From the IMG/VR virus record IMGVR_UViG_2585427760_000004: 45,070 bases of DNA; one strand, 5' to 3'. Origin of the DNA: a virus. Lineage: Duplodnaviria; Heunggongvirae; Uroviricota; Caudoviricetes. This document shows positions 9,001 through 12,000 of this stretch, in pieces; the first letter of the stretch is position 1, and the number at the start of each line of letters is the position of its first letter. Position numbers: made by a program.

Positions 9001-12000
9001 TATCAACCTGAACTTTCTGTATCTGCTGGATTGCCGCACTCTGATTTTCCAGTTTTTTATTGACGGTCTGCGTGATTTCATTGCTGACATTCGTAATGGA
9101 CGTCCTGATTTCAGCCAGGTCCGGCGCAAGCTGACCGTTATCAATCTGCGTCCACAGCTCCTGGGCCAGATGTGTTTTCCCGATTTCTCCTTTGAAAAAA
9201 TCCAGGTAACCTTCCGCATCATCGCTCGCCCGACCGACAGCCTCCACGAATGCCGATTTGCCAACAGTATTCACACTGCGGATATAAAAATAATAATCAT
9301 GGCCCGGTTTGATATTGATACTGGCAGCTATCCAGTACAGCGCCGAGCCAAGATAGCGGGCTGCGGTTTCAATCTGCCTGATATCCGCAATCCGCTTTTC
9401 CGAGAACCAGAACTCAAACTGTACCGTCGGGTCATAAACGGCAAGATGCGGCGTGGCGGTTATCTGAAAATAGCCCGGCGTCAGCTCAATCCGCGACGGT
9501 GCTGCCGGTGCGGCAATCCGGAAGGTGGTGGTGGCAGGTTCACCCTGCTGGCCATAGCTGTTTATCGCCCGCACCGTCAGGGTGTATTCCCCGAGCGGCA
9601 GGCCGCTGAAACGGTTCTCCGTGTCTGCGGTGATGGCGGTGGTCACCAGTCTGGCATCCGTTCCCTTACCACTGGTCAGGCGCAGACTGAAGCGCACACC
9701 CTTCACCACCCGCGGCGTGTCCCATTTCGCCTGCGCCAGATACTGGCCGTCAGCTGCGCTCACCTCCACCGTCAGGTGCTGCACTGCCGGTGGGATGACG
9801 CTGTTCAGGGAACCTGACTGCGGCTCAAAGCGGGCACCGTTATCCACGATGGCTTCTTTTTCCGGTACGTGCTGCACCGCCGTGATGGCAAAGGTGCCGT
9901 CCGTGTTTTCCCGGACGGAGACACAGCGGAACAGGCGACGGCGCAGTGACGGCAGGGAGAGTCCCCACACCCCGTATGTCTCCACACCATCAGGCAGGGT
10001 ACTGACCTGTATCCGGTCCGGCGCGGGGTGTTCGGTGATGTCCACACTCACTGGCTTACCGCTGCCGTTAATCAGGTTCACCGTGGCGGCACCGGTCTCC
10101 GGAAGTGTCACTTCACGGTCCAGCGTCAGGGTGCGGGTGGCAGCATCAATGGACAGGACACGTCCGCCGGTCAGGGTCCCGGCATAGTCGTTATCACAGA
10201 TTTCAATGATGTCACCGGGTGTGTGCCGCAGCCCCTGAGACCCGAGCGTGAAATCCACCGTCTGCGTTTCCAGCAGTTCGGTCTTTATCACCCACAGTCC
10301 GGCACGGTGGGCCTGACCGCGGCTGGTACAGCCGAACGCGTCCATCTTCAGCAGGTTGCGTCCGTAGCGCAGTATGGCTTCCGGGTCTTCCACCAGTTCC
10401 GTGGAGGTCTGCCAGCCGTTCTGCGGGTCGGTGTAATTCACCTCCACCGCCGTGTGCCGGTCCTTCAGGGCACTGAAGCTGTAGCGGAATCCCACGCCGT
10501 TATCATCCACCACCACATCGCTGTTGGTGTACGGCCACACCACATCCGACGGGCGGTCCTGAACGAACGTCAGCGTCTGACCGTTCCATACCGGCATACA
10601 GCGCATCGCAGAGCAGAAATCACTGAGAACGTCCCACGCCTTACGCTGTTGTGCCAGGTACGCATTAAAGGTCATCCGCGGCTCGGTCCCCCCGAAACCA
10701 TCCGGGACCGTCTGATCGCAGTACTGCCCGATGGCATACAGCGCCCACTTGTCCACATCCGCCGCCCCCAGACGTTTTCCCATGCCGTAGCGCGGGTGAG
10801 TCAGCATGTCCCACAGGCACCAGGCCGGGTTGTTGCTGTATGCCGGTTTCAGACTGCCGTCCCAGATACCACTGTACGTGCGTTTTTCCGGGTCATAGTT
10901 TGACGGCACCTGGATGATACGACCGCGGATATGGTAGTTCACCGTCATCTGCTGGCCGCCGAACTGCTCCGCATCCACCTGCAGCCCCACAATGGCCGTG
11001 TTCGGGTAGCACTGTTTCACATCGATGATTTCGGTGTATGACGACCACAGCGTCTTATTCTGCAGCTGGTCCGTGGTGCTGTCCGCCGTCTCCCTGACCA
11101 TCCGGATGTTAAAGGGCCGGGGAGGCAGATTATCCAGAATCACCGAGGCCAGGAACTGTGAGGTGGTCTTGCCGTTAATGGTGACGTCCTTTTCTGTCAC
11201 CCAGTTACCGTTACGCTGTAACTGAATCAGCAGGCGGACGGTTGCCGGGTTACGGTCACCCTTTGAGGTGGTCTCCACCAGTGACTGCACCCCGAAGGTA
11301 ACCCGCAGGCGGTCAATGTTCGCGGACGTAATGGTGCGCGTCACCGGTTTTGCCTTCGTCACTTCCACGCCCAGTCCGGTTTCAGCTCCGGAGGACTCAA
11401 AGCCTTCCGGTGGTGTCTGCTCCTGCTCCCCGGCGCGCCAGACCGCCGTCACACCGTGTATCACGGGATTGCCGTCCGTGTCCGTCAGTGGGGTTTTGTT
11501 CACCAGAATACTCTGCAGTCCCTTCACCGGACCTTCTATCGGTCCCTCACCAATCGCATCAATCACGCTCATCATCTGCGTGGATTTGAGATTATCCTTC
11601 GCCTCACGAGGCGTGTGTGCCTTACCGCCACCTTTTCCCATACAGCCTTCCCCTGAATAAATTAACCGCCACTTGCCATTCCGTACAGAAGTCGGATATC
11701 CTTCGCCCGAAAAGCATGAAACACATTTCTGCCATGCTAAAGAGAAACCCCGGTATCAGCAGATACCGGGGTTTTCTTTCATGCCCACCGATAATCCTGT
11801 TGGTTAAAACCGGTAATGGCATAAAAATTCTGAATATCTTCACATTTTCACACACTGACTGTGGCGCTTATAATTTCGCTGCGTTAGTGTTTTTTTGCCC
11901 GAGTAACAAAAACAACTCCTTAACATTGATCTTCATTTGTCTGTCCCCGCAGCTCCGCGATCACTGCGGGATTTTTTTATGTTTTATCCCTGTCGCCCGA

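Follow-up and report, generated by a model that had tools for sequence, protein, structure and literature searches.

A spacer separating tail genes I and J of a tailed phage very probably holds the gene for PasB, an Hfq-dependent small RNA

What is encoded in a long spacer between two tail genes of a phage, and in which direction is it read? The window, a stretch of 45,070 nucleotides from a Caudoviricetes virus (IMG/VR record IMGVR_UViG_2585427760_000004), carries on its minus strand the tail assembly gene I (11984..12664) and the tail tip/host specificity gene J (8168..11641), as assigned from gene calls and from how the identical phages PPompW_699 and ASU11 are annotated. The gene coordinates leave 342 bp between them (11642-11983), which the initial annotation had described as an insertion with a promoter, a terminator and a stable hairpin, predicting a ~100-nt RNA in antisense to the tail operon; we found the three elements at, or a few bases from, the positions claimed. 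We conclude, with a probability of roughly 0.93, that PasB, an Hfq-dependent sRNA of prophages that acts in trans by base pairing, is encoded in the spacer. The feature is real, functional and already known: PasB stands for pathogenicity-associated sRNA B and was described from prophage PP6 of EPEC O127:H6 E2348/69 (Pearl Mizrahi et al. 2021, Sci Adv, PMC8550237). The prediction was right, then, and its object not new, having been confirmed experimentally in 2021; the case is one where the raw sequence alone correctly foretold an experimentally validated sRNA gene.

The identification rests on a direct comparison with the annotated E2348/69 gene (NC_011601.1 1466343..1466261, minus strand; Table S6, PMC8550237). 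Mapped via the I stop codon and pairwise alignment, the 83-nt PasB falls at 11896..11978 on the plus strand, its 3' end 6 nt from the stop codon of I, and 82 of the 83 nucleotides are identical. Plus-strand positions 11951-11973 are exactly complementary to the published Northern probe, AATCCCGCAGTGATCGCGGAGCT, which has no other match in the window (0 expected by chance). PasB of E2348/69 is likewise flanked by homologues of I and J and encoded in antisense to them; this position and orientation recurred in all 20 other annotated loci fetched. An independent plus-strand small non-coding RNA thus exists, as predicted, although the published RNA is 83 nt (11896-11978) and not ~100 nt; its orientation is antisense to the tail operon, but it overlaps no coding sequence. 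The promoter, the block upstream of it and the terminator are alike in the two loci, and the only mismatches in the module are RNA position 27 (window 11922), which is A here and C in E2348/69, and an A/T difference at 11827. Position 27 is where Zhu, Shabalina & Storz (2026, bioRxiv 10.64898/2026.05.13.724894) distinguish "PasB-2", and they report that the change alters the predicted fold. The loci differ in the J-proximal half of the spacer, which is unrelated in sequence, ~100 bp longer in the window and has a different hairpin.

The published expression evidence concerns the E2348/69 allele, from which the window allele differs at RNA position 27. There, PasB was detected by Northern blot and RNA-seq and depends on Hfq, with a log2 fold change in the hfq mutant of -6.8 under activating and -2.4 under non-activating conditions (PMC8550237). 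It is expressed in the lysogen with the tail genes almost silent, the baseMean being 482-1082 for pasB and 5-15 for I and J on either side of it (PMC8550237). RIL-seq yielded 37 partners, of which 30 were CDS/5'UTR, 4 were 3'UTR/IGR and none were sRNAs; most were the 5'UTR or CDS of core-genome mRNAs, and the fraction of PasB as RNA2 was ~1, with 258 chimeric fragments under activating and 1820 under non-activating conditions (PMC8550237). By this RIL-seq behavior, PasB acts as a trans-acting Hfq sRNA, among the prophage sRNAs that link horizontally acquired elements to the host Hfq network of pathogenic E. coli.

These data already refute the reading of the spacer as nonfunctional filler, a degenerate region or repeat in which a promoter-like and a terminator-like site came together by chance. 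Consensus scans are indeed weak when taken alone, and chance alone would give about 1 terminator-like site per kb, but RNA was detected from the 82/83-identical locus by Northern, RNA-seq and RIL-seq, and the functional elements stay conserved across 71 alleles with diverging flanks. That the spacer might match a known repetitive element was checked, and no repeat or Rfam family matched: a search of 11642-11983 against Rfam 15, at the gathering threshold and at E up to 10, gave no family reaching the gathering threshold, the best subthreshold hits (≤27.3 bits) being matches to generic terminators. PasB itself has no Rfam model. The full spacer was present in 1445 and the promoter-RNA-terminator module in 1813 of 5426 complete E. 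coli genomes, a recurrence that puts the I-J spacer feature far beyond chance.

A prophage sRNA of this size could also be an anti-sRNA sponge of the AgvB/AsxR type, which neutralizes a core-genome sRNA by mimicking its mRNA targets. There are points of likeness: AgvB and AsxR are likewise short prophage sRNAs that are abundant and bind Hfq, their genes are promoter-plus-terminator cassettes occupying a moron slot, and within their family the 3' part is conserved and the 5' part variable; in addition, the A-rich, ARN-like 5' half of PasB, AACAAAAACAAC, recalls the C/A-rich targets of GcvB. However, AgvB and AsxR act on sRNAs (GcvB, FnrS), whereas no sRNA was among the 37 PasB partners; they are 51-60 nt long and lie at the moron site downstream of PR', not between I and J; and neither model (RF02702/RF02703) matched the spacer, whether with the gathering threshold or with E allowed up to 10, while AgvB of the Sakai control was found at 96.5 bits. 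Given the PR' location, the lack of a model match and the lack of sRNA partners, we rejected this identity, and a sponge function is very improbable.

The orientation of the gene raises a further alternative: during lytic growth, PasB could pair with the I-J mRNA and, through RNase III cleavage or transcription interference, uncouple or lower J, so that it would regulate the late tail operon as a cis-antisense RNA. Full complementarity to the I-J mRNA region does follow from the sequence, the I-J slot was strictly kept in every locus examined, and the RIL-seq experiments used uninduced lysogens, in which tail mRNA is nearly absent. Nevertheless, PasB lies clear of coding sequences and of the ribosome-binding site of J, which is ~250 nt away in the window, and its trans partners on Hfq number 37. 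A role in cis would demand no specific sequence, yet the seed-like motif and Hfq module are conserved in an otherwise highly polymorphic body; the constancy of the slot is equally explained by tolerance of morons between I and J. We consider cis regulation unlikely as the main function, though it may be an additional role of the trans-acting RNA.

As for the architecture of the gene, PasB is a self-contained cassette with its own sigma-70 promoter, an RNA of ~83-98 nt and its own Rho-independent terminator, placed between I and J, its transcription running counter to the late operon. The promoter, predicted from TTCACA (11847-11852) and TATAAT (11869-11874) with a 16-nt spacer, stands at 11847..11874 on the plus strand exactly as first described; it matches the consensus at 11 of 12 positions, and the same site is present in E2348/69. 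A consensus scan found 3 promoter-like sites in 1 kb where 0.7 were expected. Across 71 unique alleles the -10 element, at a fixed offset, reads TATAAT, AATAAT, TATCAT or GATAAT, and the -35 element is variable. The promoter geometry predicts a start at G11881, 7 nt past the -10, and the transcript would there begin with the plus-strand motif GCGTTA (11881..11886), which is found at a fixed offset in 59 of the 71 alleles and whose columns are invariant or nearly so in an alignment of 18 alleles. Initiation at 11881 would yield a primary transcript of 98 nt, 15 nt over the annotated RNA. The predicted (~11881, 98 nt) and annotated (11896, 83 nt) 5' ends thus disagree: the latter is 22 nt past the -10 and does not fit direct initiation at the only good promoter. 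The 83-nt PasB may arise by processing of the 98-nt primary transcript. An alternative promoter for a start at 11896 was sought by eye and rejected, the best -10 candidate being TAGTGT with a poor -35.

Immediately upstream of the -35 lies a block, ATAAAAATTCTGAATATCTTCACATTT (11821..11847, plus strand), for which the 18-allele alignment suggests a regulatory role. It contains a CRP-like TCTGA-N6-TCACA (11829-11844) and an A/T-rich, UP element-like stretch; the A/T mismatch with E2348/69 at 11827 sits in this A/T-rich run. The columns TTCTGAA..TCTTCACATTT are invariant across the 18 diverse alleles, with variation in two central bases and the -35. The pattern TNTGA-N6-TCACA is statistically unremarkable by itself, with one match in the window against 0.42 expected by chance. 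Compared with a class II CRP site (TGTGA-N6-TCACA centered near -41.5), the CRP-like site has invariant half-sites, matches the consensus at 14 of 22 positions by our own count and is centered at about -44.5 from the predicted start, against the canonical -41.5. Control of the PasB promoter through this CRP-like/UP-like block would agree with PasB being more abundant in overnight LB than in DMEM, and the block offers a testable handle on the regulation of the family.

The plus-strand terminator at 11946-11978 was also found as claimed, with the stem CCCGCAG (11946-11952)/CTGCGGG (11964-11970), of which the scan detected the inner part, followed by U7 (11972-11978); it folds at -12.6 kcal/mol (z = -2.3). 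It is the only consensus structure that RNAalifold predicted from the 18 alleles, with an invariant stem and a variable loop, and PasB is mostly unstructured outside the terminator hairpin and U-tail. A terminator hairpin with a U-tail is the usual module contacting the proximal face of Hfq, and we predict that role for 11946..11978. The RIL-seq chimeras contain the terminator part of PasB as RNA2 (PMC8550237).

Upstream of the terminator, folding and the 18-allele alignment single out an A-rich stretch (11905..11916, plus strand), an ARN-like AAC/AAA repeat that differs in sequence among alleles but is A-rich in all. It is unpaired in the fold of the 83-nt RNA, and only in the 98-nt fold does it pair with the 5' U-run. 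It is a candidate contact for the distal face of Hfq or a variable pairing region. Between this stretch and the terminator, in a single-stranded region, lies the seed-like motif GATCTTCAT (11928..11936, plus strand; family consensus RATCTTCRT). The variants found among the 71 alleles include AATCTTCGT (24), AATCTTCAT (22), AATCTTTGT (8) and GATCTTCAT (8). A predicted PasB seed directly upstream of the terminator is reported by Zhu et al. (2026, bioRxiv 10.64898/2026.05.13.724894); it is only a prediction in that work, and no MEME motif was reported for PasB in the RIL-seq study (PMC8550237). Pairing with targets could go through the conserved RATCTTCRT, the variable A-rich stretch or both. An example of a sequence complementary to RATCTTCRT is AUGAAGAUU.

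Could the spacer instead encode a small protein, or a type I toxin-antitoxin with PasB as the antisense regulator? The minus strand does have ORFs, one of 22 aa at 11936..11868 and one of 66-77 aa at 11622..11855, and the 66-aa version is annotated as a hypothetical protein in ASU11. The 77-aa ORF nevertheless had no Pfam hit and a best PHROG E of 0.23; its frame passes straight through the -28 kcal/mol terminator hairpin and is disrupted by indels of 1 and 5 nt in otherwise identical spacers. The 22-aa ORF, antisense to PasB, is not hydrophobic, as a type I toxin would be, and conserves neither its start codon, ATG being replaced by ACG in the commonest allele, nor its length, which changes in others. 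No minus-strand promoter was found by the scan, and an ORF of 128 aa on the plus strand had no hit in a search of Pfam only. We rejected a coding role for these ORFs; the claim that the spacer holds no credible ORF stands, and we regard a small protein or toxin-antitoxin gene as highly improbable.

The spacer is not, however, one inserted unit, as had been claimed, and J does not directly follow I in lambda, where the I/J gap is 60 bp and has its own hairpin. The very stable hairpin with U-tracts on both strands was confirmed by folding, at 11739..11780 and outside the PasB transcript: a 10-bp G+C-rich core stem (11748-11757/11762-11771) is extended by A/U pairs between an A-tract (11739-11747) and a T-tract (11772-11780), and it folds at -27.2 kcal/mol on the plus (z = -7.8) and -28.3 kcal/mol on the minus strand (z = -5.7), with none of 200 shuffles folding equally well. 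Its predicted fold resembles that of an intrinsic terminator, whichever strand is read. Other alleles have a different hairpin in the same place, terminator-like solely in the tail-gene direction. Every allele examined, and lambda as well, has a tail-sense terminator hairpin between I and J, so the PasB cassette looks like a moron inserted beside it; the hairpin is a separate and apparently ancestral part of I-J junctions. We propose that the 11739-11780 hairpin would serve as an intrinsic terminator in the tail direction that Q-modified late polymerase would pass; such a hairpin is also present at I-J junctions lacking PasB, lambda's among them.

Morons, as Juhala et al. are said to have described them in 2000, are autonomous promoter-gene-terminator units between genes that are adjacent in related phages. 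The PasB cassette resembles them in having its own promoter and terminator, in its site between I and J and in being expressed from a repressed prophage; it differs in its regulatory RNA cargo and in running opposite to the flanking operon. The J-proximal half of the spacer (11642..11817) is noncoding and, by our alignments, specific to the PPompW-type spacer variant; in E2348/69 its place is taken by ~75 bp of unrelated sequence. It is nearly invariant wherever found, except for frameshifting indels adjoining the hairpin, and no phage record was found to have it apart from the full spacer (of 147 matching records, 13 cover ≥80% of the query). A divergent sRNA ending at the tail-sense terminator was considered and rejected: the consensus scan gave no minus-strand promoter, inspection by eye gave only weak candidates (extended -10 TGtGAAAAT) that are not conserved, and the RIL-seq summary table holds no sense-strand I-J IGR entry.

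Viewed across genomes, PasB belongs to an allele family much broader than the Pas papers describe, tandem two-gene arrays included. Up to 11 copies of the module occur in a single E. coli genome, and 144 loci gave the 71 unique alleles, whose flanks diverge around a conserved promoter, 5' motif, seed-like motif and terminator. The family is much more diverse than the few-SNP picture of the Pas survey and probably more widespread than that survey reports. Among genome contigs, the promoter block was found only in E. albertii and in three short contigs labelled as unrelated taxa, the latter probably contamination.

EcOnc22, EcOnc23 and EcOnc24, from prophages Sp15 (Stx1), Sp14 and Sp11 of EHEC O157:H7 Sakai (Tree et al. 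2014, PMC4104026, Table S2), are very probably diverged alleles in the I-J slot. They gave a Northern band of ~85 nt and were destabilized without Hfq (PMC4104026). Like PasB, all three occupy the I-J spacer in antisense orientation to the tail genes, and their spacer shares with it the invariant upstream block, the 5' GCRTTA, AATCTTCAT and the CCCGCAG/CTGCGGG-U7 terminator; the RNA body is ~75% identical, with a different A-rich middle and different -35 and -10 elements. The Hfq-CRAC peak of EcOnc22-24 overlaps the PasB-like RNA if coordinates are shifted by about +128 to +146 between genome versions, a shift calibrated at AgvB1 alone. PasB and EcOnc22-24 appear to be allelic forms of a single gene family that shares one slot, and we found no paper linking them. 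Such additions at the family level are modest and leave the basic understanding of the PasB element unchanged.

More tentatively, and with the odds somewhat against it, one polymorphic sRNA family could have the I-J junction of lambdoid prophages as its dedicated, recombining slot, with PasB, EcOnc22-24 and at least three other body types as members, sometimes in tandem two-gene arrays and in up to 11 copies per genome. Its members would keep an invariant CRP-like operator, 5' motif, seed-like core and terminator and differ in the A-rich middle, so that a polylysogen would possess a co-regulated set of sRNAs with diversified targets, perhaps also acting in cis on their own tail mRNA. If true, this set would be tuned to carbon source or growth phase. 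Farther from the cassette, an IS009 Rfam element lies ~8 kb off in the window, and PasB is similarly flanked according to Zhu et al. (2026, bioRxiv 10.64898/2026.05.13.724894).

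The spacer between the lambda-type tail genes I and J encodes an sRNA that is already known. The gene calls place J (8168–11641) and I (11984–12664) on the minus strand with 342 bp between them (11642–11983), where the initial annotation had predicted a plus-strand RNA antisense to the tail operon. We found this RNA to be PasB, an Hfq-dependent prophage sRNA of EPEC E2348/69. The published entry places the 83-nt PasB of prophage PP6 at NC_011601.1 1466343..1466261 (minus strand), flanked by E2348C_1436 and E2348C_1437, and gives AATCCCGCAGTGATCGCGGAGCT as its Northern probe (Table S6, Pearl Mizrahi et al. 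2021, PMC8550237). The reverse complement of the probe has an exact and unique match at window positions 11951–11973, and E2348C_1436 and E2348C_1437 are the I and J homologues of E2348/69, PasB lying in the same slot and on the opposite strand. In the alignment, the two spacers are identical from ~11823 to the I stop codon except for two single-base differences, an A/T difference at 11827, in an A/T-rich run upstream of the promoter, and one at RNA position 27 (window 11922). Via the I stop codon, the annotated PasB maps to 11896–11978. As a change at position 27 sets apart the 'PasB-2' variant and E2348/69 does not carry the most frequent variant (Zhu et al. 2026, bioRxiv 10.64898/2026.05.13.724894), the window allele fits the common PasB variant.

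The earlier interpretation was essentially right; the element is an already described and experimentally validated sRNA and not a new kind of feature. What the analysis adds is incremental and at the level of the family: a wider allele range, a probable identity with EcOnc22–24, tandem arrays, an invariant upstream block and an apparently ancestral hairpin. The proposed signals were recovered by consensus scan, the promoter TTCACA-16-TATAAT at 11847–11874 (plus strand, 11 of 12 matches) and, supported also by folding, a plus-strand terminator with the stem 11946–11952/11964–11970 followed by U7 at 11972–11978. The spacer holds no credible ORF: searches of its ORFs gave no Pfam match and no significant PHROG match, and frames and start codons are not kept. 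Indels of 1 and 5 nt shift the frame of the minus-strand ORF of 66/77 aa between spacers that are otherwise the same, and the 22-aa ORF antisense to the predicted RNA has no ATG in other alleles. The spacer region matches no Rfam family.

PasB of E2348/69 was validated by Northern blot, and hfq mutation lowers its level strongly (log2 fold changes −6.8 and −2.4; PMC8550237). RIL-seq lists 37 distinct partners for it (30 CDS/5'UTR, 4 3'UTR/IGR and 0 sRNAs), with accessory-genome partners in <2% of its chimeric fragments, and it is nearly always the second RNA of the chimera (PMC8550237), as is characteristic of an sRNA that Hfq binds by its 3' end. The predicted seed is the single-stranded stretch directly upstream of the terminator (Zhu et al. 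2026). The baseMean of pasB is 482–1082 and that of the nearly silent flanking tail genes 5–15 (PMC8550237), so PasB is transcribed from its own promoter in the lysogen.

From the only good PasB promoter, transcription would start at G11881 and give an RNA of 98 nt, whereas the annotated 5' end, based on RNA-seq coverage, maps to 11896, just after a U-run (PMC8550237). Processing of the RNA, or an artefact of coverage, could explain the mismatch. Folding predicts that the U-run pairs with an A-rich stretch in the 98-nt form and that this stretch is free in the 83-nt form. Upstream, at 11829–11844, we found a CRP-like site, TCTGA-N6-TCACA, whose half-sites are invariant across all alleles; variable positions occur only in the centre of its spacer, while the adjacent −35 drifts. 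By our own count, the site and its flanking bases match the textbook CRP consensus at 14 of 22 positions. Its centre, however, lies at about −44.5 from the predicted start instead of the canonical −41.5, and chance alone would give 0.42 occurrences of the bare pattern in the window. Judged from sequence, an invariant block next to a drifting −35 would fit an activator-dependent promoter, which we regard as a lead and not a result. PasB is more abundant in overnight static LB than in exponential DMEM (PMC8550237); a candidate CRP site fits the higher level in glucose-free overnight LB, again as a lead, since the growth conditions differ otherwise too.

The full 342-bp spacer is present in 1,445 of 5,426 complete E. 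coli genomes, and its right half, with the promoter, RNA and terminator, is found at ~74–78% identity in many Stx-converting phages (BLAST). We gathered I–J spacers from complete genomes and phages and scanned IMG/VR with the invariant promoter block, obtaining 149 modules of promoter, RNA and terminator in 144 loci, 71 of them unique. Conserved across the alleles are the invariant block TTCTGAA..TCTTCACATTT, directly upstream of and overlapping the variable −35; a −10 at fixed offset (TATAAT, AATAAT, TATCAT or GATAAT); GCGTTA from 7 nt after the −10 (59 of the 71 unique alleles); the U-run; an A-rich stretch, variable in sequence; a seed-like core RATCTTCRT; and a terminator whose 7-bp stem is invariant and whose loop varies, ending in a U-tail. 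According to RNAalifold, the terminator is the only structure that the alleles share, which suits an Hfq sRNA whose body is single-stranded. They are also mosaics, one left flank occurring with different RNA bodies and vice versa.

The module is found in 1,813 of the 5,426 genomes, at 5,544 places and in up to 11 copies per genome. In a scan of one genome per species, its only occurrences beyond E. coli were in E. albertii and three short contigs. The exact promoter block is present in contigs labelled Asaia platycodi, Lachnospiraceae MAG and Streptomyces flavalbus (L015, L016 and L018); those of Asaia and Streptomyces are very short and the Lachnospiraceae MAG contig has 112 kb. Contamination of these assemblies is most likely because L018 holds a whole E. 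coli-type I–J spacer, and the three non-Escherichia contigs are probably contaminants. Some spacers carry tandem pairs of cassettes (loci L030, L085, L105 and the E. coli genome behind L025; also L071), the two PasB-like cassettes of L085 lying within 4020–4400 on the minus strand. In tandem spacers the promoter blocks are 179 nt apart, and the first cassette differs in both its RNA body and its terminator (CTCCCG...CGGGAG-U6). The promoter is interrupted by an IS element in one locus, L076 (IMG/VR contig 2534681940_000025, minus strand), where from ~5762 an apparent IS3-family end replaces the sequence after the promoter block; as read from the sequence, this would disrupt the sRNA promoter. 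We take the element to be IS629-like.

Alleles of the same family very likely include EcOnc22, EcOnc23 and EcOnc24, homologous Hfq-bound RNAs of the Sakai prophages Sp15, Sp14 and Sp11 with a Northern band of ~85 nt that is destabilised without Hfq (Tree et al. 2014, PMC4104026). The I–J spacers of these prophages (L019 391–630 for Sp15; L021 and L022 for Sp14 and Sp11) carry a diverged PasB-like cassette, and the published coordinates all fall inside them, antisense to the tail genes. The coordinates refer to an older genome version; anchored on AgvB1, the shift is +137 to +146. With this shift, calibrated on AgvB1 only, the Hfq peaks fall on the PasB-like RNA body and terminator; unshifted, they would fall where neither promoter nor terminator exists. 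The identity is not proven. The link is absent from both Pas papers, and we found no paper stating that these RNAs form one family: EHEC homologues are noted for PasA and PasD, not for PasB (Table S6, PMC8550237), the 2026 preprint never mentions EcOnc (bioRxiv 10.64898/2026.05.13.724894), and a 2021 review lists the targets of EcOnc22–24 as unknown.

The very stable hairpin reported at 11748–11780 was borne out, with −27.2 kcal/mol on the plus strand and −28.3 on the minus strand (z-scores −7.8 and −5.7, respectively); of 200 shuffled sequences, none folded as well. Flanked by an A-tract and a T-tract, it is terminator-like both ways. It was considered as the end of a second sRNA and rejected, as we found no minus-strand promoter and no published RNA that would end there. 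The left 176 bp of the spacer are specific to the PPompW-type variant, E2348/69 having ~75 bp of unrelated sequence instead. Between J and the sRNA promoter, nevertheless, a G+C-rich hairpin with a U-tract after it, read in the direction of the tail genes, is present in nearly every spacer, and in its common version a C:G pair is replaced by U:A through compensatory change (CAGGCACCC...GGGTGCCTG vs CAGGCATCC...GGATGCCTG). In phage lambda, which lacks PasB, J does not follow I directly, contrary to what had been assumed: the two are separated by 60 bp (L014 1246–1305, lambda 15445–15504). This gap also contains a hairpin comparable to those of the PasB spacers, ACCGCC-TGCG-GGCGGT, with TTTTGTC after it when read along the tail genes. 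A terminator-like I–J hairpin is thus common to lambdoid phages with and without PasB, and the simplest reading is that it is an older feature of I–J junctions. It may act as an intrinsic terminator that stops unmodified polymerase and is passed by Q-modified late transcription, and on this view the ~165-bp promoter–RNA–terminator cassette is a moron that entered between this hairpin and the stop codon of I. Since the window hairpin has a U-tract on the plus strand too, it could also shield the PasB promoter from transcription off the antisense strand of J.

Elsewhere in the window, Rfam identified a full-length IS009 RNA element downstream of J (3680–3878, minus strand, 224.5 bits). IS009 is typical of PasB flanks (Zhu et al. 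2026); by analogy with the annotation of the closely related phage PPompW_699, unaligned in this region, the element should lie among the T3SS effector genes nleG, espM and espO. Two STnc100 sRNA copies (34074–34283 and 34561–34751, minus strand; 161 and 129 bits) adjoin a cluster of three minus-strand tRNA genes at 34826–35075, Arg-tct, Arg-tcg and Met-cat, the last probably of the ileZ type. A match to the sok antitoxin RNA (39436–39611, minus strand, 120.5 bits) implies a hok/sok-type type I toxin–antitoxin locus in the prophage.
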